Source of the DNA: Styela clava
Taxonomy: Eukaryota
Direction: 5' to 3'
Assembly (NCBI RefSeq): GCF_964204865.1
Contig: NC_135254.1
Coordinates: forward strand, 21,446,199 to 21,510,198
DNA: 64,000 bases
Made by a program: the position numbers and the translations under genes. Below are positions 463 through 52,465 of the stretch, in pieces. The notes beneath the pieces are model-generated. The model made no database searches, had not been told where the DNA came from, and worked only from the letters and a program-made list of their open reading frames with translations. The stretch's first letter is position 1. Each line of letters opens with the position of its first letter.

Positions 463-3400
463 CAGTGGCGGCGCGTGGTCATTTTGACAACCGGGGAAAG
501 CTACTGCGGGACCAAGTCACCCCCATCTACGGGGACAGGATGAGCGCTGTGAGCTCTCCCATCATTTTGTGAGTATAAAAACCATTTCATCGGTAACAAC
601 CAATCGGCAAAAGCGACAATTTTTGATGATAAGAAAGTGTCTTTAAAACCGGTCCAAGTCAAGGGATTAATAAATATAGACATAGTTTATTTTGAAACCT
701 CTTTCAAAAGGAAAGGCAATATTTACCCAGATAAATACAATGACATATTAACAGAAACTTCGGGAAAGCAGACAAAACCTAAAATAAGGTTTAAAACGTT
801 ACTATGGAGAAAGGAAAGGTAATGCAAAGATAAGGACATGCGTCGCTCACTCATAGATATATATGCTGCTAGACTTCTACTGCTTGAACATATATGCAAC
901 ACGCCGCGGTTTCTTGGAAGCAAAATGCTCAATAACGCGCTGATTAAAGTCATGCATCCCAGAAATAACGTCTCTGTGAATGGATAAAACAGCCAAGCAA
1001 TTTAATCTAACTTGCTTCATTGTGTTTCTGAGATACGTTTTAATACGCTTCAGCGTGCTGAATGTTCGCTCTGCGTCGGCGGAAGAAATAGGCGTCGTCA
1101 AAATGATGTCCAGAAATTTTGCAGACGCCGCAAAAGTAGTTACTAGAGTGTTATCTATGAGGAACCCATAGAGCGCGCAAGTTGATGTGATGTTCAAAAA
1201 AGTTTGATTGGTGTATATACATCGCAATTCATTTTCTAATTTACCCACGTTTATCATGGGGTAAAATTTGGAGACAGTAGCCAACAAATAGATGGGAAAT
1301 TGACGTGCAAATTTTGAAAAATTTTTGGGGTTTATCAAAGGGAACGCGGCAAGGTGTTCAGTGCGCAGACGATCGCCTATTTGATTCACCAGAATATCAC
1401 AGCATTCCTTTGCAGACAAAATCAAACGCTGCGTTGTTTGCCCGCGGCGTAAAGCATAACTCTATGTGTCGTCGTATTTTATTGTTTCCCGGATACGAGA
1501 TACAGCATTGCAGAAGACTGAAATACACGACTGCACAGACGCTCCATCCATTAGCCTTGACTGCAATGCGCCGTTTAATACATCCACGTGATAGAATATT
1601 GTGGAGAAAAAATGAAAACTCACCATCTTCTAGCAGACGCTTTAGACCTGCCGCCTCCCTCACAGAGCGTTCGTCCCAAACCGGAGAGCTCTGAATGCCA
1701 TTGAAACACTCGATGAGCTCAGACCTAATTTCGGATACGCCCTGCACCACGCGTGATTGGAAGTTCCAACGTGTTGGTGCACAAGTTGGGAGACGGCGGC
1801 TACATATCTGGCGAAGGAGGTCAGAGCGCTTCGGCGAAACGGAAAAAAATGAAGAAAAGCCCGGAACATTAGCAAAAATATACGGACGAGAGGGGTATCA
1901 AGACACATATTTTTATTAACGAGGTTAAATTGGTGTGCATAACAATGTAAAAAATGCGCATGAGGAAAATCTTCTTTTATATAAACTTGAACACCATGTT
2001 TCGACCCACTCATGACTGCCGCGCTTTGAGCTATCAATTTTGACTTCGCGTTGTAAGGCTGTAACACTTCTTTCAGTACAGCCGATATCCCGCAAGCCGT
2101 GCGATCAACGATTGGTACAAAGCTGTGAAATCTCTCGGTAGGTTTACCATCTTTCACAAACCGAAAAATCACAGCCAATTGGGAAACGCACATGATGTCA
2201 GTTGTCTCGCCAGACTGAATCGAAAGGAACTGGCAATTCTCAAATTCCAGAGCCAAATGTTGAAATAAATTTTATACATTGAGTCGAGCAAATCATTTTG
2301 GATATCCTTAGATGTCCCTTTCGAAACAGTTGCGTCATCAAGATGATCTCTCAATACTGTATCTAGGGATGCGGTGTATTCCACCATATCCAAAAATACC
2401 CCTCTATTAGAAGAGCCAGCCCGTTCATCGTGCCCACGGAGGGACAGCTCGCGACAACCAATGAACTTCAAAACATCTATCAATCGACCGAGAACATGGC
2501 GGTTTTTCTCGACGTTTTGGTTGTGCCGACGAATAGAAACCGCGCGTCCTTCATCCAACTGTGCTGCAATATTAACATTTCCGAATATTCGGTATTTTAC
2601 TGCATTGTCCAGATGCTCCATAGAAGATTGATGATTCCTGGCACGCTCGGAAAGATGTTTAAGATCTCTAAAACCAAATTTACACAAACGTGAGTCACGG
2701 GCGGTAGCAAAAAGTATGCAATAAAAACAAAAAAGTGCATTTTTGTCCTCGCTGTAACACAACCATTCGTGTTTTTTATACCAAGTTTCTGCGCAGAATG
2801 TACGCCGACACTTTCCTCCGTCATGGGATTGTTCCAGTGAACAATTTTTTGGTTGATAAGGCCCAAGACGTTGTACCTCTAATTTTTGTTCCAGCGGCAG
2901 CTGCGAAAACGGAGTGCGAAGTAGTGCATCAACCTTATTCATTATGAGGTCTAAGGCTAAGAAATGCGAAGCCGGAAAGAAGTGAGGAGCTCAAAAGGAA
3001 TGTGGAAAGCAAATGGACTAAAGGTTCTAACTGATTCAACTAGCTAAACAAGCGACAAAAACGAAGGCGAGGAAACTATCAACGCTTCAAGCAACCAACG
3101 AACGAGAAGGAATGCGTGAATATGTCAACACGTTGTTGTAAGAAACGTCGGCATTGTGTCGTCATAATTTCGGGGCTAGCCCCGATGATTTAGTAAAAGA
3201 AACAGAAAACAAACGAGACAAACGCGGCGAGTGGAAGATAAAAGAGAGAATACGATATACAATGAGCAACCGGGGCAAAATCGGCGTCGCCCCGTCGACG
3301 TTCGGCGAAGGCTTTGCCAGCGAAAAATGAACCATGTCGGGAGAATATGGCTAGTGTAGACAGTCTGTGCAACCGATATTGAGGTATTTTTCGAATATTT

Positions 3401-3464: not shown

Positions 3465-4612
3465 GTGGTTGGTACTCCAGGTGATGATGTCGTTCTTGAG
3501 TAAAAGTTTACTTAAATAGCAGAACATTGCTTAAATTTGGCGTATCGCGAATCGCTCTAATTTAATTCATTCCGAGGTTTATATACTGTGCTCAATATTG
3601 TGCTGTGAACTGTCAATGTATTTTAAAGTTGCAAAGTCTAATATACCAAGTAAAATTAAAAAAAAAATCCTTAAAGCAACAACGCGCACATTATATACGA
3701 GTCACAAGCTGACAAATAGAACTGACGACAAACTGATCTTGATTCGAGGTGCGGTAAAGTACGAGTCTCACGAAGTAATCGCGTGTTTAAAATAATACGA
3801 ATGTGCCACTGGTTTTGGGAAAATCGATAATTCACAACGAACGGGACCGCAGTTTGTGATCATTCAACGCCGTCGCTCCAGTCATGTGACCAAACAACAT
3901 GCTGTTATAGATGAACGATGTTCGTAGATGTAGACCATGCATCATATAGATGTATTGAAAAATAGTAATAGCCTAGTAATTATAGATGTTCTTTAGTGAG
4001 GTGAATATGGTAAAAAATCAAATAACGCTCCCAACATAGCATCACTGCGACAGATCTGCGGAGCTCCATATCATGTTGATCAAACGATATTTCCAGGTAT
4101 CTATGGACCTTTCCCCGAGCATCGACTTCCTTGTTTACTCCGTGATATTGGCCAATCAACAAGATGCAAAAGTGACGTAACAATGCTCCCTTTTCGCAAT
4201 CGCTCAGACACTTTTCTCACTCAGACAGATTTTCAAGCGTGGTCGTAAACAGTACCTCCTCGTTTTCGCGTTTTAGAACTCTATTCGTTAGTTTTTGGTT
4301 GTGTTTCGGAAACTTAAATGTAAATCAGATAATTCAATGATCACTATGTCTTCCTAGGAGTTTTTATTAAATTGCAGTAGTAAAAATTAGTGTAGAAATA
4401 GCTGTGATAGACTAGGCTAAAATTCTTTACCGGTACTTTTGGAAAAGCAGATTGTGGTATGTGATGAATCATAATGATGGTTTGAAACACATAATTATTT
4501 CACAGGCGCTAAATCGCAAAAGCACTTTTAAAATAGCCACGAAAATTTTGCAATGGTAAAGTATAGGAAGTATTTTTCGGGGATCAAAGGTCGGGGAAAG
4601 GTCCATTACCTT

Positions 4613-6466
4613 GTACCAGGCTTGCAAATCTACGCGAGTACGCGAGTCATACTCTAGTCTAGACTCGCGTATTTTGCCCTACCCGAGTCTAGCTATTACT
4701 CCCGTAAAAAACGTCATTACTCGCGTCCAGCAGTACACGAGAGTCCGAGGCGATTTTTTCCGCCGCCTCTCGCTCTTTATTCTTTAGTGACGTAAAATCG
4801 TTTGCGGGCGATGGTTTATGATGTCACAATAGTACATTAGAGCGAAAAGCGAGGAATCAAGCACGGGCACGCCTCCGGACGACTTGGCGTTGGCGAATGC
4901 AGAATGTTCCCTTGTAATAAGGCAGACTGCGAATGCGTATTATGAATTTAATAGAAGTGTTGCAGACTAACAAAGATGAGATGTCGGTAAGATTAGGGCT
5001 AGTGTAATTAATTAGTTATATTAACGGCTGTTTTGTTGTAAATTACCGGTAAAAGGGTATCTTTGCGTAACATCGTTTTTTTTTTGTTTAAAAATACCAC
5101 AGGAGATATTATAAATTGTATGATTAGAGTAAATGGAGGAAAAATCAAGGTCCGTCTCTGTAGCGGCCTGGAGGTTTTGGCCAAACAGATTAAAGGACAG
5201 TTTTACGTTCGGTTTCAACGAAGATAATATCAAAGTCGTACATGCAGCATGCATTGTATGCAAAAAACATTGTGACAGAATACAGCGCGGCTATGGAGGC
5301 AAAGTTGTTAATGATGTGACGACTTGCGGGGAGAATGGCACCAACTGGGATCTAAGATATAATTTAGAACGACACCTCAATTCCGAGGGCCACTTAAAGT
5401 GTGTCGAAATTGAGAATGGGAAGCTCCCGACGCAAACAAGTATCGCTCGCTTATGGGGCTGCCAAAAACAGAGGGCGGAGAACGCCATAAAACCTCTTGT
5501 TCGTACTGCACTGTATGTCTCTAGGAAGGAACAGTTTGAAGACGGGGCCATTCGAGAAAATCTGGTCAACAAGGCTTCCGCCCGATTTATGGGAAGCGAT
5601 GGGACGTCTGAACGAGGTCTCGTGAAACGACGTATAAATTCAATTTTAGGGGGGTTGGAAACAGCAAAGCCCAGCTTGGTACAGCCTCAACTAATAAACA
5701 TCGACGATAGCTCGTCGGAAGAAGACTAAAACTGTGATATGTGAACCTGAAAGCGTCTCACGCATTTCTTTGTTCGTGACACAATTTCTAACCTTTCTTT
5801 TTATACATTTTAAATGATGCGAAGTCGACGGGCGGCGGGCGATTAGCGTTTAATATTCAATTTCGTTCTTTCTGTGCGATGTTTACTTTGCATGAACTCA
5901 TCTGCTACATGCGAACTTATTTTATAGATTTCAGTTTGTACGGCAAATGTCAGACTGCATGAATGGTTTTGTTTATTAAAAAAAAAAAAGCAGGCGATGG
6001 CAACGGCGACTGCCGTTTATTAAAGTTCCTCCCTTTATTGTGCAAAACTTGAGGTATTATTTTCTTTGTAGGGTAACATGTTGAGAGTTATTCACAGTCC
6101 ACAGTTTGCAGCAAAACCTGCAAAATGGTTGACCCCGATTTATAATTAGGTCATTTACGTCGTGCGGGGAAAACGGCGTCGCAGAGCACGCAGCTATCTT
6201 GATTAGTATTTAATGAGACGCTCGCAAGTAGCAATATCGCAGAACGAGGGTACCGACGGAGTAGTGTTTATCGAGCGAAAGTAGGTGTGTAGATAGTGTG
6301 TGCGTAGATATATTTAGACACATTGACTCGCGCCTGACTCGCATAGCATTTTCCTGGGACGGGAGTATATGTGACGTCACTATGACGTCATTGAATCTTT
6401 CGAATTCCGTTAGGAGGTCGACGAGAGTATGCCTAGACTCTCGTTTTCGGGCGCGGATTTGCAAGC
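4613..6466 (+). mobile_element. Roughly 1.85 kb TIR element carrying a single BED-zinc-finger ORF (non-autonomous hAT-like derivative?)
   Basis: Termini CAGGCTTGCAAATC (4613-4626) and GATTTGCAAGCCTG (6453-6466) are perfect 14-bp inverted repeats, followed by diverged but related subterminal sequence (CATACTCT, CTAGACTC motifs). Flanking TTGTAC on both sides (4607-4612 and 6467-6472) is a possible short TSD. Confidence 0.6.
5133..5729 (+). CDS. 198-aa BED-type zinc-finger protein with an acidic C-terminal tail and no transposase catalytic domain
   Basis: Intact ORF. Residues ~10-95 fit the BED finger signature (WRFW...F, then CIVCKKHC, then NLERHLNSEGHLKC: aromatic W/F, Cx2C, then H-x-x-x-x-H/C). 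The C-terminus is DDSSSEED. The ORF lies wholly inside the 4613-6466 TIR element. Confidence 0.6.
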   Translation: MEEKSRSVSVAAWRFWPNRLKDSFTFGFNEDNIKVVHAACIVCKKHCDRIQRGYGGKVVNDVTTCGENGTNWDLRYNLERHLNSEGHLKCVEIENGKLPTQTSIARLWGCQKQRAENAIKPLVRTALYVSRKEQFEDGAIRENLVNKASARFMGSDGTSERGLVKRRINSILGGLETAKPSLVQPQLINIDDSSSEED

Positions 6467-6552
6467 CTGTTGTACTGTAATTATCAAAATGGGTTTAGCG
6501 CTATGAACAGCGAGAGTAAAATTATCTAAATGCAGCAATTTCATGCCATATA

Positions 6553-7096
6553 GCAGGGGTCGGGAACCTTTTTGGTCAAGAGAGCCATAAAATATACATA
6601 TTTTCAATTGCATTTCCGTGCGAGCCATATAACATTTCTTCACTTAATCAGGCCTGAAATGTTTCCTCAAAAGTCAACACATACAATGTCAATATACATT
6701 TAATGAGATTTCTGATGCTGCATGTAGTCGCTGCGGGCCTTGAACGGTTGCTCACTTGCAGCCCAAGTTGAAATCTACGGTACTCATCACCCTTTTTCGT
6801 TTAGGCATCTCCGTAGTGTTTTTTAAACTCTATCGCTTTGTGATGTCACAATATATGTTCCAGAATCCCCTTGTTTGTCACAATGCCTGTCTGGGATTAT
6901 CTTACATATCATAGACATGTGCTGGGCGCGCGTTCTCAAACGTATTGGGAATTTTCTGCCAAAATTGGCTATAAAAGTGTTTGAAATTTCGTAACAATAG
7001 TAAGCTTAGTCTTAGAATATTAGATTTTTCTGGGAGCCATATGCCGTCACCAAAAGAGCCATATATGGCTCGCGAGCCATGGGTTCCCGACCCCTG
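6553..7096. mobile_element. hAT-type MITE, about 545 bp
   Basis: TIR CAGGGGTCGGGAACC at 6553; its inverse GGTTCCCGACCCCTG ends at 7096. Same TIR family as the MITEs at 33893, 50228 and 50831. Confidence 0.6.
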
Positions 7097-7530
7097 TGGC
7101 ATGGGGCTCGGCATGCAAATCCCATCTCAAAACAATATCTGTTCTTCAAAACCGTGCCCTGAGATTGATGACTGGTGCTCGTTCTAGACAGAGTTTGGGA
7201 CCAATTTATAAAAAAATGAACATCCTTAAACTTGAGGATGTGTATAAACTTGAAGTGGCGAAAGTCATGTTCCAGTTCAAATTCGGTATGCTGCCCATTG
7301 CTTTTAACAATTATTTTACCAGTTGCAGCAATGTCCATAGTTATAACACCCGTTCAGCTGGCAGAGGCTCTTATTTTGTTAGAAGGACAAACTCCACCCT
7401 GGTGCAAAAATCTATAAAAATTGCTGGCCCAAACATATGGAATAACATTCCAAATTTGATCAAAGAATCTTCGTATAATAGTTTTAAGAGTAAATTCATG
7501 AGGCATCTCATTGATAAGTACTGAAGGTAT
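7096..7530 (+). mobile_element. 3' tail of a non-LTR (CR1/L2- or RTE-like) retrotransposon ORF2, followed by its satellite tail
   Basis: The 142-aa ORF ...ILKLEDVYKLEVAKVMFQFKFGMLPIAFNNYF...HSYNTRS...YFVRRTNSTLVQKSIKIAGPNIWNNIPNLIKESSYNSFKSKFMRHLIDKY has the character of a LINE ORF2 C-terminal region. A homologous degenerate copy lies at 14280-14560. Confidence 0.45.
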
Positions 7531-7559
7531 GATTTTGTCCAAACTTCATGATACCTTCT

Positions 7560-9400
7560 GTATCCTAGCATATATAAATTACTATTATGTTTTTTATGTT
7601 TATCCATATTTATATATTGAGTACTATTTGTGTATCTGCAATAACTGCCATCTAATTTTGAGGCAAACCCTTGCTGATTTAAATAATAGTTTATTCTCCA
7701 TATTTATATAATGAGTACTATTTCTGTATTTGCAAAAATTGCCATCTAATTTTGAGGCAAACCAAACCCTTGGTGACTCAAATATTAATTTATTTATCCA
7801 TATTTATATATCGAATACTTTTGTGTATTTGCAATTACTATCATCCAATTTTGGGCAAACCCTCATTTACTCATATTTATATATTGAGTACTATTTGTGT
7901 ATCTGCAATAACTGCCATCTAATTTTGAGGCAAACCCTTGCTGATTTAAATAATAGTTTATTCTCCATATTTATATAATGAGTACTATTTCTGTATTTGC
8001 AAAAATTGCCATCTAATTTTGAGGCAAACCAAACCCTTGGTGACTCAAATATTAATTTATTTATCCATATTTATATATCGAATACTTTTGTGTATTTGCA
8101 ATTACTATCATCCAATTTTGGGCAAACCCTCATTTACTCATATTTATATATTGAGTACTATTTGTGTATTTGCTAAAATTGCCATCTAATTTTGAGGCAA
8201 ACCCTTGCTGATTCAAATAATAGTTTATTCATCCATAGGCTATTTATATTATGAGCACCATTGGTGCCCTTGCAATCTAATCTAAACTGCCATCTAATTT
8301 TGAGCCTAACCCTTGCTGATTTAAATAATAGTTTATTTTTCCACATTTATATATTGAGTACTATTTGTGTATCTGCAATAACTGCCATCTAATTTTGAGC
8401 CTAACCCTTGCTGATTCAAATAATAGTTTATTTCTTCATATTTATATATTAAGTACTATTTGTGTATCTGCAATAACTGCCATCTAATTTTGAAGCTAAC
8501 CCTTGCTGATTCAAATAATAGTTTATTTATCCTATTTATATTTTGAGTACTGTTTTATGTATTCGCCAAAACTGCCATTTAATTTTGAGGCAAATCCTTG
8601 CTGATTCAAATTATAGTATATTTCTCCGTACTTATATACTGAATACTATTTGCGTATTTGCAATAACTGCCATCTAATATTGGGTCAAACCCTTGCTGAT
8701 TCAAATTATAGTTCATTTATCCATATTTATATATTGAATACTATTTGTGTATTCGCAATGACTGCCATCTAATTTTGGGGCTAACGCTTGCTAAGTCAAA
8801 TAATAGTCTATTTATCCATGTTTATATATTGAATCCTATTTGTGGATTCGCAATAACTGCCATCTAATATTGGGGCAAACCCTTGCTGATTCAAATTATA
8901 GTTCATTTATCCATATTTATATATTGAATACTATTTGTGTATTCGCAATGACTGCCATCTAATTTTGGGGCTAACGCTTGCTGAGTCAAATAATAGTTTA
9001 TTTATCCATATTTATATATTTAATACTTTTTGTGTATTCGCAATAACTGCCATCTAATTTTGGGGCAAACTCTTGCTAAGTCAAATAATAGTTTATTTAT
9101 CCATATTTATATATTGAATACTATTTGTGTATTCGTAATAACTGCCATCTAATTTTGGGGTAAACCCTTGCTAAGTCAAATAATAGTTTATTTATTCATA
9201 TTTATATATTGAATACTATTTGTGTATCTGCAATAACTGCCATCTAATTTTGAGGCAAACCCTTGCTGATTCAAATAATAGTTTATTTATTCATATTTAT
9301 ATTATGAGAACCATTGGTGTATTTGCAATAACTGCCATCTAATTTTGAGGCTGAACCCTTGCCATATTCTTTATATTGAGGTCTATTTTGTGCATTTGAG
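7560..9400. repeat. Tandem satellite, roughly 95-bp unit, about 19 copies, with higher-order (~270 bp) variant structure at the 5' end
   Basis: CTGCCATCTAATTTTGAGGCAAACCCTTGCTGATTCAAATAATAGTTTATTTATCCATATTTATATATTGAGTACTATTTGTGTATTTGCAATAA recurs with period about 95 (8287, 8382 and 8477). The first about 700 bp alternate three sub-variants. The array starts immediately after the LINE tail at 7096-7530. Confidence 0.85.
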
Positions 9401-42200: not shown

Positions 42201-45200
42201 GTTCGACTTCGTGTTGCCAAACTTTACGACTGAAAAATAAAGAACAAACTCGATTCATTTTGCGGATTTACTTTTTTAATCAGCGTCTTGTGGCAGAATT
42301 ACATTTGGAAAATGCTACAGTGGTTTAAATATATATCAATATCTTTAAATAATATTGTTGCATTAGTGGAAATAACAGTAAACTTAACAAATCGCGGTGA
42401 AAATACTCTCGATCTCCGTGCCTGACCTATTTCTGTAACATATTTTTAAGTGAAATAACGCATATTATTTTGTTTGTCTCAAATCATCTAGATTTTATAC
42501 TTGTTTTGCTTTTTTGATTCTGTAACCAGTCCTTTTGTTATATTGTCTGTATATATATATATATATATATTGACTATATATTAGAATCAGCATATATGTG
42601 CTATGGTATTTCAATGACTAGCAGATGTGTAGTTGGTGGTTACAGCAGAGTTAACAGTGATTGTCTGCCCCTAAATGAATTTTCTAAGCATGAAACAAGA
42701 AGACAATTATGGATCAAATTTGATCAACTAATCCTTTCTGATGTATTCATGGAACTCCTCTAATTTGAGTCGTTTCAGCGTAAAAAAAAGGGCCGTGCAA
42801 ACTCCTGCTCCAAAGCCTACAATACCGGACGCCGTTGAGTAAATAAAGAATATTATATCAAACAGTCGAGAAACGAGATAAAGTGACTACAGAGTCAGTA
42901 GTTCAAAGCCTCCCACTTCCATAATTCAATTCAACTCAGTGGCAAAAAAAAACAAAAAACAGCACCATTATTCATTGCTACTACAGTCAAAGTTTAACTA
43001 ATTCATCAATAACTCTAGCAAGTTTGTGGCCTACCTGAATGTGATTCTGTGGACCAGCAGTGCGCCCACTGGTTGAGAACCGGTGCACTCAACCATAACT
43101 AACCATAACGTGGATTCCACGTTCACTTGATTCCTTTGGAAAATTAGCCCATTTGTAGTGCCCTGCCGCTCAAGTTGCAACTTCTATCATGTGTTACTAA
43201 TCTTCAGCCCTGCAAGATCTTCACATTGTATTCAAGTTCAATCATTACCTATTACATGACATCTTCATTGTGCATCTTGTCCTCCTCGTTACTACTTTTA
43301 TATTCGCAGCGACGCATCCTCTCGTGCACTCAAGTATTTAAATATTTAACCGAACCTGTTTCCATGGCTGATGAAAACACGAAAATTACGAATTGCACGA
43401 ATTAGTAAAATTGCACAAGCTTGTACGTGTAAATAAAAGAAAACTGGTGAACAATTAAAAAATCGTTAGAGGAATAATGATATTACGCAGTCACAAATCA
43501 GCATTTATCTCCAAAACGCAAGGGCTACTACTTGTTTGTCTGTTAAGCTAGTCCTCAGTTCAAGGGGAGTTGCCCGAAGGCCTCGGCATTAAATTTTGAA
43601 CTGTTATTCACTTTTAGTTGTTTTTGAATTTTGAGGGATTGCTCAAGAATAATTGCGGTTTAAAATTATATATACTCGATATTAATAACTGCTGATCCGC
43701 ATATCTACCGTTCAATAATATAAAAAAAGAAATACGGCCGAATACATATATTGTCCAAATTTGAAAAAAAACTCTAGCACTTGAACGCGCATCTCGCGAC
43801 TAAAAACGACTAAAATACTGTGGGTTTTTGTGGTGCCTCGACTTTTTTTTCATAATAGCTTTGAGTTTCTAAAGAGTTGCTGAATGCAACTTACTGGTCA
43901 ATCTACTTCGGTAATATGAGAGTCTTGCGTGTGACTGAAATACCGCATTTTCCTCATTTTGAAAAACAGTAGGTTTATGACGCCGAGACACATTTTACAT
44001 AGCTCATTATGGCTAACCTAATTACTTTCATGACGTCATTATTAGAGATGGAGCTCATAAACAGCATAGTATAGGGCCCGACCCTGCGCTTACATCTTAT
44101 GTAATGGTTGGGCTCATTTGCTACTTTATCCGATGCCACAGGTCCTTGCGAACCAGGGCAGTGATGATACGTTGACTAATTTCAGTTTGCATTTGTTATG
44201 ACGTCCTAATATTCGTTTCGAAAGTCGAAACAGCACCGTTTCGACATATCAGTGTTTCGAAACGCCCAGCACTACTTGATAGCATCATACGTTGAACGAA
44301 TATTATATAAACAGTCGAGAAACGAGATAAAGTGACTACAGAGTCAGTAGTTCAAAGCCTATTGCGAAATTGCCAGTATCGGCACGTTCGTTACATAGGA
44401 CGTCATTTCTTGATTGCCTGACTGTCCGAGTACATAATTGTTTCAATAGTCATGAAATCACGCGATGTGAAACTGGAATTAAATGCCAAAAACAGAGCTC
44501 AAACACTCTAATCGCGAGTATGCGATGAATACAAGTTTGGGAACGAGTTCTCAGTACTACGTCATCAAAGACTGTTTCCGAACAGCGGTCAATTTTCGTT
44601 GAAACGAATTTCAAAAATTCAGAAGTGTAAAACTAAGTTGACTTTACGTAAATAGTAGGCGTAAAAGATTCTGAAAAAATATGTATAATCAAATTCATAA
44701 AAAAAAAAAATCTTCGTGATAACCCACATTTGACAGCATAGTTTTCGAGTTTCATTATTTTGCCAAGGAGAAAATGTGTACAAATCAAGTGGTTTTTAAT
44801 CAGACAATTAGTTCTAACATACTCTGTTACACAAAACAGTCAATGACTACTTATTTTCAAGAACGTTATGAATGCATCCGAAACTGGATACTCGTGCAAT
44901 ATTGTTTTCCTCCTACTGGACAGTTTAGTATTTTTTGCTTCGCTGTCCATCAATGTTCCAATATATTACAGAAGTATACAATTCATAAGGATGAAGAAAA
45001 CAGGCACGGGACCAGGAGCAATGCTCTGTATTAAACTCGACAAAGCCCTAGTTTTAAACCGAAAAGGCGACGTGAAACGTTTATATTTTTTTTTTGTTTT
45101 TAGACGTCTAGACCTGCCTTCCTGAGTCGTAAACAGGGTTCTGAAAATGCTTTGTACCCCTATCGTAAATTAAATCATCAATTCATGTTTGGCCATTTGA

Positions 45201-50227: not shown

Positions 50228-52465
50228 CAGGGGTGTGCAACCTTTATTACATGAGGGCCAGATACAAGTAACTGGGTGAAGCCGCGGGCCGCACCTAGAA
50301 ACTCTACCTACGATCTACGAAAGGCTCTGGACACGAAAAATGAAACTTACGGAAATTCTGCTCGTAAAAATATTGCTTCGGCTAACGTAAGATTGTTTAC
50401 ATACGAAAGGCCTAATAGCGAACACTTAAAAATGCGTGTAGTGATAATTGTTTATTTTAGGTTAATTTATTGCAGTGTCCAATTCGAATTATAAGAACAC
50501 TGAATATGGCGCACATATCCTAGCGCCGCCGACACGTATTGATTTGAAACGTATTACAATTATTTCATTTTTTATCGTAATCGAAGGCACCCGTGTGCGT
50601 CGCGGCAATAAATTATCTGCCATCCCATTGGCCAGTTTGTTTCTCGCTGGTACGTACAATGTGTTGCTAGCAAAATTCAGTGAATAGACGATGATACGAT
50701 GGAGAAAAAATAAAAAATTGAATTTCATTTTTGTACATTGCGTTATCCCTCAGCTGTCAAATTTTACCACGTCCTCTAACCTCCTCCGACGCCGTCCTCC
50801 CATTCTCTGCGGTCTTCGTTTAGCCTATAGAAGGGGTGGGCAACCTCTGGCACGCGTGCCAAAATCGACACGCGAGCCCATTTATTCGGCACGTGAGCGA
50901 GGCCTCAGAAACAAGATCATTCTTCTTCAGATAAAAAGTTTCAAGACTGTGAATTATCTGATGAAACTTGGTGTTCGTTTATTCAATATATATCGTTTGT
51001 TAAGAATCCGTTATTTATTCAAACTCTTTTTGTCCTTTCATGACATAAGTCTACAAAGAAATATATTATGATATGACGTAACAAATGAGTGAGCTCTCGA
51101 GAAATTTTTTCGAGAAGAGCGCAGCATTCATTTGGCTACATTCTTACATAATATAGTTCGTCTGTGCCACCCTTTTTCTTCATTTCTGCTTGATTTATGA
51201 CGTTTTACAACTCATGTTGGTCACAGTTATTTGCTAACTTATTGTTATAAATTGACTTCGAAATAAATATAAGCGATTAGGGAAGGGAATACAAAAGAGA
51301 GGTGCAGAAAACGAACTATTCCGTGATTGGGATGCCATTGTCGAAAATTTTTTGTGTGTTTGAAACTTTGCAACCGCATTACTCTCCATCATTTCATCTA
51401 CATATTATGCTTGTGAATCTCTGTTCTCAGTTATGAACTTTATTAGGTCTCGTACCAGAGGTAGCCTGAAATAAGAAACCAGTAGTTCTTGTATTTCTTT
51501 AAACGTTACAAAATAGAAAACCCAATGTAAAATCTCTATCAGCGGTAATGCAGCAGCAGAAGTATCACTGATATAGAATAAGAAAAGTAATCAAATCTAT
51601 TTACGGACTGATATTTTCCCGAAAAGTGAATTTGTCTGTACATGTTTAAAAGGTTTATTATTGTGTATTTTGCTTTGAAAGTAGCAAATCGTGGTTTTTA
51701 ATTTTGGTCGGCACGAAGGAGAATTTTGTCGTTAAATTTAGCCGATTTCGGCACGCGATCCGAAAAAGGTTGCCCACCCCTGGGCCCTATAGCCTAGTCG
51801 CCAACGCCAAAGGTAATCAAACATATCGTTCGTAGTTGTTCTTTGGTATATTTCTCTGTCCTTTCTTCTTTCCGTGTGTATCTTTTCTATTTATTATGCC
51901 GAAATCTAATTTTAACATGTATTTGTTACAAGTTTTAATCATTGTTATAATTTATACAAATATTATGTCCGAGTTCTGTGTGGGCTCAGAAAGGATTGGG
52001 GCATTTACAAGTAAAATGCATCTTTACTTACGGAATTTTCTACATACGAAGGGGCTTCCGGAACGAATTAATTTCGTAGGTGGAGTTATTGCAAGCACAA
52101 AAATTGTTTCTTTTTGTTATTGATCTTACGGCATAGTTAGAGGTTCTTTCAGAAATGTTGAGTTAAAACGTGTAAATTGAAAACTGCTATTCAAATTTAC
52201 TGTCGCACCGACTTTGAACGAATTCAGTGAGAAAAACGTTTTCATAACATTGTGTATTTTGCAACAGGATTTTTCTAGCTAGTTTTGCTAAATGATAGTG
52301 GCACTCAGGTACTGGTATAGGCTTTGCCATGTAAAGGGGTTGGAATTGTGCATACGTTCCAGATAAACTAAACTAAAAACTCGTTTCGCGGGTACACCAT
52401 TCAAAATTGGCACTTCTCCGCGGGCCGCACAATTTTCCTTGCGGGCCGCAGCTTGCACACCCCTG
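50228..52465. mobile_element. hAT-type MITE (~2.24 kb) in hemicentin intron 5, with a perfect 8-bp TSD and a second MITE nested inside
   Basis: TIR CAGGGGTGTGCAACC at 50228; its inverse GCTTGCACACCCCTG ends at 52465. Flanked by identical TTGTAAAC (50220-50227 and 52466-52473). Confidence 0.75.
50831..51797. mobile_element. Nested MITE (~0.95 kb) of the same TIR family
   Basis: AAGGGGTGGGCAACCTCTGGCACGCGTGCC at 50831 and its inverse ...GGTTGCCCACCCCTGGG at about 51770-51790. CCTATAG-type flanks on both sides; exact ends uncertain. Confidence 0.55.

Follow-up and report, generated by a model that had tools for sequence, protein, structure and literature searches.

A probable internally deleted hAT transposon with a 198-codon open reading frame in the tunicate Styela clava

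Within the 64-kb stretch of Styela clava DNA that was analyzed here (the window), a short segment bounded by terminal inverted repeats (TIRs) carries an intact open reading frame (ORF) of 198 codons. Does this ORF encode a transposon-derived DNA-binding regulator that is kept by selection, as a preliminary description suggested, or is it what remained of a transposase after a deletion? The genome expansion of ascidians such as S. clava has been reported as transposon driven (PMC7540406). The element locus sits among many repeats, and the frameshifted hAT transposase that had been noted nearby is indeed present at 877-2942 on the reverse strand, where DUF4371 and Dimer_Tnp_hAT lie in separate frames.

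Termini, target site and subterminal repeats

The element spans 1,853 bp (window positions 4617-6469). Its left TIR, CAGGCTTGCAAATC (4617-4630, forward strand), is matched exactly over 14 bp by the right TIR, GATTTGCAAGCCTG (6456-6469, reverse strand), which confirmed the perfect repeats described earlier. Both TIRs adjoin a copy of TTGTAC, read from the sequence at 4611-4616 and again at 6470-6475, and this direct repeat is perfect over 6 bp, while the 8-mers flanking the element differ. Bounds of 4613 and 6466 had been proposed; the element is real, but these coordinates were 3 to 4 nucleotides off, so that the start fell within the target-site duplication (TSD) and the end within the right TIR. 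The perfect TIRs and TSD suggest that the insertion is recent. The corresponding empty site would read ...CATTACCTTGTACTGTAATTATC..., but a search found no empty paralogous site, and self-BLAST found no second copy of the element within the window.

The subterminal regions are rich in short repeats. On the left (4631-4740), CGCGAGT/ACTCGCG occurs at 4633, 4641, 4663, and 4719 together with GAGTCTAG-type variants, and the right region (6325-6455) has a pair of TGACGTCA palindromes (6372-6390) and GAGAGT variants in addition to GACTCGCGCCTGACTCGCAT (6325-6344). Of the six ACTCGCG/CGCGAGT heptamers present in the whole 64-kb window, five sit in the subterminal 110 to 145 bp of the element, and by analogy with other hAT elements they may be transposase-binding sites. 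A cluster of TGACGTCA and CGCGAGT near 44,000-44,520 was inspected and found to be unrelated to the element.

Similar ends were found next to homologous transposase genes on unrelated contigs. The terminus in L002 (CAGGCTCGCAAATCC) differs from the element TIR by one mismatch and lies about 700 bp upstream of a homologous ORF, and the similar terminus in L004 (CAGGGCTTGAAATCC) lies about 990 bp upstream of one; each is followed by CGCGAGTCCGCGAGTC, with clusters of the subterminal motif behind both. Thus, the TIR is conserved in relatives and resembles that of a transposable element rather than being unique to this locus. Two complete relatives were delimited: one of 4,296 bp in L006 (2260-6555; TIR CAGGCCTCGATTTTCG, TSD TTGTG) and one of 5,995 bp in L005 (438-6432; TIR CAGGGCCTAGATTTTCG, TSD ATCCA). 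The TSD in L002 is ATTAAG (6 bp), provided that the outer right end is used. The elements of the relatives begin with CAGGCTCG, CAGGGCTT, CAGGCCTCG, and CAGGGCCTAG and have CAGG...-like termini. In L003, a candidate TIR pair (7092/11609) was discarded because it is located within another called gene and is without the family motif.

Could a chance ORF have been caught inside a chance inverted repeat, with no real element at all? Perfect inverted 14-mer pairs 0.2 to 5 kb apart are common on their own, with several in the window and a mean of about 4 in first-order Markov shuffles of it, so that a few such pairs per window are expected by chance. However, a 6/6 TSD match at the exact position has a chance probability of about 1/4096, the terminus and subterminal motif are kept ahead of homologous genes on independent contigs, and the ORF matches both ends of a transposase family with E values of 1e-30 or better. 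The TSD, the conserved termini, and the ORF homology ruled out this reading, and we give it a negligible probability. We regard the termini as real because of the TSD, the clustering of the heptamers, and the occurrence of the same terminus and motif near homologous transposase genes.

TIRs of hAT elements are about 10 to 25 bp long and typically start with CAG or YARNG, and the canonical hAT TSD is 8 bp. The short, 14-bp CAG-type TIR agrees with this pattern, whereas the TSDs of the element and L002 (6 bp) and of L005 and L006 (5 bp) fall short of 8 bp. The hAT5 and hAT6 groups of animal transposases, as Kapitonov and Jurka (2007) are cited in PMC12730594, have TSDs of 5 or 6 bp and not 8 bp, which would account for the lengths seen here. 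The CAGG... termini and the 5-bp TSDs in the 4.3- and 6.0-kb relatives likewise suggest a family near hAT5/hAT6; such a placement is compatible with the data and is based on TSD length, not on phylogeny.

The ORF joins the two ends of a transposase

The ORF at 5133-5729 (forward strand, including the stop codon) is uninterrupted, as had been described. All of the sequence features pointed out earlier are present, including W13..F15, C41-IV-C44, the NLERH81LNSEGH86LKC90 stretch, and the acidic DDSSSEED tail. An exhaustive HMMER scan yielded 36 relatives, and the two parts of the ORF were placed on them by pairwise local alignments, because the C-terminal tail was misplaced when the ORF was aligned globally with full-length relatives in MAFFT. 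The N-terminal part (amino acids [aa] 1-133; 5133-5531, forward strand) contains a C41-x2-C44 ... H81-x4-H86 zinc finger followed by a helix at aa 111-132, and it aligns with the N terminus of a family of hAT transposases of roughly 860 aa. It matched the N termini of P0002 (47% identity; E value, 5.6e-30), P0042, P0006, P0009, and P0019, although identity to the closest full-length relatives was just 30 to 47%. The alignment covers ORF residues 1-135 in P0002 (335 aa), P0009 (354 aa), P0042 (478 aa), and P0019 (795 aa), and all four proteins run on past this region into the transposase body. The C-terminal part (aa 131-198; 5523-5729, forward strand) has a natural stop and ends in DDSSSEED. 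It is identical at 66 of 68 positions to the C terminus of S. clava LOC120332227 (P0001), within which ORF aa 1-116 have no counterpart.

The two parts meet at R131-K132-E133 (AGGAAGGAA; 5523-5531, forward strand), a tripeptide common to both parental sides: relatives of the N-terminal part read ...(A/G)RKE(K/M)PF at this point, and P0001 reads ...IATRKEQFEDG. In the distant P0019, residues 71-74 are GRKE and residues 688-691 are TRKH. The shared RKE is likely a microhomology at which the parental sequences were joined.

P0001 maps onto residues 369-603 and 665-740 of P0019, its tail aligning with residues 665-740, downstream of the Dimer_Tnp_hAT domain; thus, at least one S. clava copy of the family appears to keep the middle of the transposase while being 97% identical in the shared tail. 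P0019 matches Dimer_Tnp_hAT above the gathering score (24.7 versus 21.4 bits) and carries the hAT hallmarks DGS, HCFAHRLELA, and VERGFS; this single above-threshold Pfam match, the hallmark motifs, and weaker matches in related proteins led us to assign the family to hAT. In L003, the finger ORF is followed by called genes that carry FAM200-GTF2IRD2-like. The gene in L001 is a single continuous 795-codon ORF in which the part missing here is contiguous with both of the kept parts, which argues for a deletion at our locus and not for splicing.

None of the missing part was found elsewhere in the window when relatives were used as tblastn queries. With the 795-aa P0019, only its residues 1-82 were recovered, in agreement with the proposed lack of a catalytic domain, and Pfam and tblastn searches of the element revealed no RNase-H-like DDE core, no CxxH motif, and no hAT dimerization domain. 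The ORF is not a stand-alone BED gene: the relatives show a remnant of a longer transposase, its first ~133 and last ~68 residues, and the catalytic core and dimerization domain that belong between them are missing. The termini, the TSD, and the family homology of the only credible ORF bear out a hAT-type TIR element and support its being a genuine transposon of this superfamily. Judged from its sequence, the element is a hAT by descent, through both halves of the ORF and the termini, and not by its own coding capacity.

The label of a BED finger, given in the preliminary description, was not confirmed with Pfam. Neither the ORF nor its N-terminal 113 aa matched zf-BED (PF02892), or any other Pfam family, at E values up to 10, and zf-BED was matched by 0 of 34 relatives at E values up to 1 (0 of 35 family members). 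The sole recurrent Pfam match was zf-C17orf113 (PF25431), found below threshold at the same place in 17 of the 34 relatives (best E value, 3.6e-5; at most 23.6 bits against a gathering score of 29.5 in the ten relatives tabulated), with no match in the ORF itself. Both Pfam fingers resemble that of the ORF in having CxxC ... HxxxxH ligands after aromatic residues at the N terminus of hAT-type proteins, whereas the ORF finger is distinguished by a 36-residue spacer between CxxC and H with a family-specific conserved block, Y.GK.V.DV..YG..GT. An AlphaFold2 model of the finger domain had a mean pLDDT of 90. In the alignment of relatives, C41, C44, H81, and H86 were kept and the conserved finger positions were largely retained; the family-conserved residues that changed were Y64 (to C) and KP at 75-76 (to RY).

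About 516 bp of 5' sequence are kept upstream of the ORF. The start codon has a favorable context (A at -3, G at +4), and an out-of-frame ATG lies 13 nucleotides upstream, at 5120. With low confidence, a possible 5'-untranslated-region intron can be proposed at 4987-5102 on the forward strand (GTAAGA...T-rich...CAG), with gatgtcg/gtaaga at 4987, a T-rich tract, and ttttttttttgtttaaaaataccacag ending at 5102. The 3' untranslated part (5730-6324, forward strand) is without a recognizable coding remnant, and tblastn with P0001, P0019, P0042, and P0043 gave no match there.

Word-indexed searches of protein collections returned only P0001 for the ORF, only two relatives for P0019, and only metagenome proteins for the family alignment, and none of the three queries returned a named homologue. 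Neither the 198-aa protein nor a close N-terminal half (more than ~50% identical) was present among ~15 billion proteins, including nr and UniRef, where the only close match to the ORF was that of its tail to P0001; no orthologue or paralogue with the 198-aa architecture was found. Exact-sequence look-ups for the genomic context of the ORF and of P0001 had nothing on record, and searches of the PDB with the P0019 sequence or the family profile retrieved neither Hermes nor another hAT structure.

Origin of the element and of its ORF

Taken together, the element is probably a recent insertion: a non-autonomous copy of a hAT-superfamily DNA transposon, derived from an autonomous parent by internal deletion; this is ordinary transposon decay, and the deletion derivative is of the usual kind. 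The parent would have been about 4 kb or longer and would have encoded a transposase of ~860 aa, with a CCHH zinc finger, an RNase-H-like core (DGS..., HCxxHRLELA, VERGFS), a hAT dimerization domain, and a short tail with an acidic S/D/E run at its end, in that order. A deletion of ~1.8 to 2.4 kb, which most plausibly arose through slippage during replication or through interrupted repair of the gap left by excision, would have resolved at the RKE microhomology and removed about 600 to 615 residues, with the first ~133 and the last ~68 staying behind. By chance it would have been in frame, thereby leaving the 198-codon ORF. Because the TIRs at both ends and the CGCGAGT repeats next to them are in place, the element should still be mobilizable in trans by full-length members of the family. 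We infer the age of the copy, its copy number, and the exact breakpoint.

An intact ORF had been taken as a sign of selection. This does not follow, since the copy, with both TIRs and the TSD perfect, is young, and about one-third of deletions are in frame by chance; our default assumption is that the ORF is a by-product and not a selected gene. The preliminary description had likened the element to KP, and the structural resemblance stands, in that the N-terminal finger module was kept and the catalytic domain lost. KP, a derivative of the P element, lacks bp 809 to 2561; its 207-aa product binds to P elements and can repress their transposition (PMC4938643). If translated, the S. clava stub would be expected to compete with the transposase for the subterminal sites. 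Acting as a trans-dominant repressor, it would bind the CGCGAGT repeats of its own family, inhibit transposition, and so be amplified or retained by selection. The KP-like architecture, the retained ligands and most other conserved finger positions (in a domain modeled with high pLDDT), and the preserved 5' sequence and start context all speak for this. However, a single copy was seen in the window, the protein is absent from the ~15 billion proteins apart from the match of its tail to P0001, an out-of-frame ATG precedes the start, two family-conserved sites are changed, and a young in-frame deletion would leave the ORF intact by chance. Additionally, the hAT dimerization domain was deleted, so that neither cooperative binding nor poisoning of transposase oligomers is assured. 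We therefore consider such a repressor unlikely. Slightly less likely still is the fuller version, in which the protein works as a KP-like inhibitor of a tunicate family of the hAT5/6 type, is under selection, and has had its junction amplified for damping transposition.

A host gene in the making, as a zinc-finger regulator domesticated from the transposon, was also proposed. Domesticated hAT-derived zinc-finger genes (ZBED genes) are well known in animals, and the ORF is intact, with a putative DNA-binding domain and an acidic tail. In contrast, perfect TIRs and TSD with subterminal repeats mark a mobile copy that was inserted recently, whereas an old immobilized gene would have lost its TIRs and TSD; with all of these intact, the element looks non-autonomous and still mobilizable. 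The absence of a zf-BED match in the ORF and its relatives, the lack of a homologue with the 198-aa architecture in protein collections, and the location inside a nest of repeats also argue against domestication, which we regard as very improbable.

As it stands, the result is a routine repeat annotation that delimits the element, gives its TSD as 6 bp, and describes its subterminal motif and deletion junction. Its importance would grow if the exact junction were present in many copies and these were transcribed. To our knowledge, protein-based self-repression by truncated transposases has been documented in very few eukaryotic transposon families, mostly P and Ac. The family, found in a tunicate and in eukaryotic DNA of metagenome assemblies, is apparently an undescribed hAT family that combines short TSDs with an atypical N-terminal zinc finger.

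Comparison with known elements

Like KP (PMC4938643), the element is internally deleted but has intact ends, and its ORF, about 200 aa long, retains a putative N-terminal DNA-binding domain without catalysis. The two differ in superfamily and finger (P/THAP for KP, hAT/CCHH here) and in the type of product, KP being a truncation with 8 novel residues and the S. clava ORF an in-frame fusion of N and C termini. Repression, DNA binding, and population spread have been demonstrated for KP, whereas for the S. clava element they are hypothetical. With hAT5/hAT6, a Blackjack-related animal lineage, the element and its relatives share a TSD of 6 or 5 bp, although TSD length seems to vary among the relatives described here.

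The non-autonomous hAT elements Ds, derived from maize Ac, and the deleted hobo copies of Drosophila also arose by internal deletion. Like our element, they have short CAG TIRs and subterminal repeats, and their deletions take the transposase body and leave the ends for mobilization in trans. The S. clava element differs from them in its TSD (6 versus 8 bp), its tunicate host, a finger that is not Pfam zf-BED, and an in-frame deletion that left a 198-aa ORF composed of the head and the tail of the transposase.

Ends of the element and its longer relatives

The window is eukaryotic DNA rich in repeats, and the element within it spans positions 4617 to 6469 (1,853 bp). Its left terminal inverted repeat (TIR), CAGGCTTGCAAATC at 4617-4630, is matched exactly by the right one, the reverse complement of CAGGCTTGCAAATC at 6456-6469; the inverted repeat reported in the preliminary description was thus real and exact, while its coordinates (4613 to 6466) were wrong by 3 to 4 nt. 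A perfect 14-mer inverted pair alone is not significant, because several occur in the window and about four matches are found in Markov shuffles. The ends are real because the hexamer TTGTAC adjoins both of them as a target site duplication (TSD; 4611-4616 and 6470-6475), of the six ACTCGCG/CGCGAGT heptamers that the 64-kb window contains, five fall in the subterminal 110 to 145 bp of the element, and its terminus followed by the motif, CAGGCTTGCAAATCT-ACGCGAGTACGCGAGTC, is kept in two unrelated contigs, 5' of the homologous gene in each, as CAGGCTCGCAAATCC-AGTGCGAGTCCGCGAGTC (L002) and CAGGGCTTGAAATCC-GACGCGAGTCCGCGAGTC (L004). The right subterminal region also holds two perfect TGACGTCA palindromes (CRE-like), 11 bp apart (6369-6392). 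Further copies of this palindrome cluster near 44.0-44.4 kb (44031-44405), in a region that looks unrelated to the element, and GACGTCA is over-represented in the window (12 observed versus 4.3 expected).

Two relatives on other contigs are complete. That on L006 (2260-6555; 4,296 bp) has the TIR CAGGCCTCGATTTTCG (15/16) and the 5-bp TSD TTGTG, and gives a single tblastn alignment to residues 2-739 of the related protein P0019; that on L005 (438-6432; 5,995 bp) has the TIR CAGGGCCTAGATTTTCG, the 5-bp TSD ATCCA, and transposase pieces covering residues 1-134 of the ORF and 1-727 of P0019. Compared with these longer relatives, the window copy has lost about 2.4 kb or more. L002 carries a second shortened copy (6931-9328; 2,398 bp) that begins with the left TIR CAGGCTCGCAAATCC; its right end is irregular, and its 6-bp TSD, ATTAAG, is found only with the outer right end and is suggestive only. 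At 9304-9334 of this contig, 9 nt similar to an internal subterminal motif, AATAGACTG, separate an inner TIR-like GATTTGTGCGAGTCTG from the ATTAAG that matches the left flank, an arrangement that may reflect partial end duplication or filler DNA. The TSDs of the family are 5 to 6 bp long, not the canonical 8 bp of hAT elements.

Composition of the ORF

As the preliminary description had it, the ORF at 5133-5729 runs through 198 codons without interruption, and it is the only ORF of the element with any homology support. A word-indexed protein search of about 5.8 billion clusters returned a single relative, P0001 (Styela clava LOC120332227, 304 aa), which matches the C-terminal part only: over the stretch that begins at R131 and runs to the stop, the two proteins share 66 of 68 residues, and each terminates in ...NIDDSSSEED. 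An exhaustive HMMER scan, run on 1.84 billion representatives, yielded 36 relatives, which match the N-terminal part; ORF residues 1-135 are 47% identical to residues 1-137 of P0002 (335 aa), and residues 63-134 pair with residues 2-75 of the 795-aa P0019. In every longer relative the sequence goes on directly after ...LY(I/L)(A/G)RKE(K/M)PF... into a large body absent from the ORF. The P0019 gene is one unbroken 795-codon ORF in contig L001, and its product has the Pfam domain Dimer_Tnp_hAT above the gathering score and the blocks ...LLDGSAAAK..., ...VHCFAHRLELAAKD..., and ...STATVERGFSSIRR..., hallmarks of hAT transposases. P0001 can be aligned to two parts of P0019, residues 369-603 and 665-740, and the tail it has in common with the ORF corresponds to P0019 residues ~687-740, C-terminal of the dimerization domain. 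Given the N-side matches to the relatives and the C-side match to P0001 and P0019, the ORF is, judged from these alignments, a hAT transposase reduced to its first ~133 residues, to which the last ~68 are fused in frame.

The ORF lacks about 615 residues, with all of the catalytic core, the insertion domain, and the dimerization domain among them, and tblastn with P0019, P0042, P0043, and P0001 as queries detected no trace of this segment in the element or elsewhere in the window. The preliminary description was largely right in what it observed, and its proposal that only a binding module had been kept was partly right, in the hAT origin and the lack of a catalytic core. Two outcomes that it had named as counting against the proposal were nevertheless observed: zf-BED gave no match, and the ORF is what is left of a longer transposase. 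P0001 is itself without the whole N-terminal half and the core of the dimerization domain (...LPFSTATVERGFSS...; compare P0019 residues 604-664) and, as a gene model, probably describes a different defective copy of this transposon family.

The deletion junction lies at nt 5523-5531, in the tripeptide R131-K132-E133. In the family alignment RKE is the N-side sequence at the junction, and it also occurs on the C-side, where P0001 reads IATRKEQFEDG; even in the distant P0019, GRKE stands at 71-74 and TRKH at 688-691. On the simplest reading, the deletion would have been resolved at this short microhomology. In many relatives (P0003, P0004, P0005, and P0011-P0014) the match to the ORF ends at residue ~97, after ...KC.EIETG, and in L004 (8297-8422) it resumes about 125 nt after that break; no such break is seen in the window copy, L001, or L002. 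This pattern suggests an intron at this position in part of the family.

In the family alignment, a conserved W, a conserved F, and C-x2-C are followed by a block specific to this family, Y.GK.V.DV..YG..GT, and this in turn by (K)PNL.RH..S.GH.KC. The ORF retains C41, C44, H81, and H86 and departs at two conserved positions (Y64 to C, and KP to RY at 75-76). Pfam gave no match on the ORF even at E<=10, zf-BED included, and zf-BED was likewise undetected in all 35 sequences (the ORF and its relatives). The sole recurrent Pfam match was to zf-C17orf113; 17 of the 34 relatives gave it, without ever reaching the gathering score, and the ORF itself did not give it. Together with the retained cysteines and histidines, these results support the reading of the finger as a CCHH zinc finger from a hAT transposase N-terminus, and the BED finger named previously is not borne out in the Pfam sense.

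Neighboring repeats and ORFs

A decayed hAT transposase of a different family lies on the minus strand at 877-2942, split over three ORFs that differ in frame: 2169-2942 (-), where a TTF-like CxxC finger was recognized by eye and DUF4371 was matched (E 1.6e-6); 1660-2256 (-), the middle ORF; and 877-1425 (-), with Dimer_Tnp_hAT (E 2.7e-9). The frameshifted neighbor of the preliminary description is thereby confirmed, and it has only generic hAT motifs in common with the element. A perfect inverted pair of 16 bp (ATGGACCTTTCCCCGA at 4103-4118, its complement at 4593-4608) encloses about 500 bp and ends 3 to 9 nt short of the TSD and left end of the element; this unit may represent a MITE that the element landed in or next to. 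MITE-like units at 6554-7096 and 50831-51781 have termini related to each other, one unit with CAGGGGTCGGGAACC / GGTTCCCGACCCCTG (15 bp perfect, ~540 bp apart) and the other with (A)AGGGGTGGGCAACC / GGTTGCCCACCCCTG (~950 bp apart). The unit start CAGGGG... is hAT-like, and no clean 8-bp TSD was seen at 6554-7096. A 142-aa ORF at 7096-7524 (+), ...LRLMTGARSRQSLGPIYKKMNILKLEDVY...HSYNTRS..., has no Pfam match and looks similar to the C-terminal tail of ORF2 in non-LTR retrotransposons. A satellite-like array of tandem repeats, 95 bp in period (190 and 285 bp also scored), occupies 7599-9362; it holds ~16 to 19 copies at 78 to 88% identity and coincides with an AT-rich stretch at 8-10 kb.

Origin of the element and meaning of the open ORF

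On its sequence, the element is an internally deleted member of the hAT superfamily, probably of the hAT5/6 type with short TSDs. It has kept both ends and the subterminal repeats without any catalytic capacity, and it would be nonautonomous, mobilized in trans by full-length family members. The insertion is presumably recent, because the TIRs and TSD are perfect. The ORF is probably open because the deletion fell in frame by chance (about 1 in 3) and the copy is young, which leaves no need for selection to explain it, and we consider the ORF likely to be a neutral by-product.

KP, the 207-aa product of an internally deleted P element, binds the P ends and represses transposition (PMC4938643), and an expressed stub of the present kind would likewise occupy the binding sites of its family. 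Such a function is unlikely here, however, with a single element copy in the window, a dimerization domain that has been lost, and an out-of-frame ATG 13 nt upstream of the start codon; moreover, in the large protein collections searched, the 198-aa protein is absent and its N-terminal half has no close relative. Domestication of the ORF as a host gene is more improbable still, because the copy bears all the marks of mobility.

Taken as an internally deleted hAT element, this copy allows the termini, the TSD, the subterminal motif, the deletion junction, and an atypical zinc-finger family to be defined. Families of hAT elements with 5-bp and 6-bp TSDs are already known as hAT5 and hAT6; PMC12730594, with reference to Kapitonov & Jurka 2007, assigns them to a lineage of animals related to Blackjack elements. 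The family of the element resembles them in the length of its TSDs.
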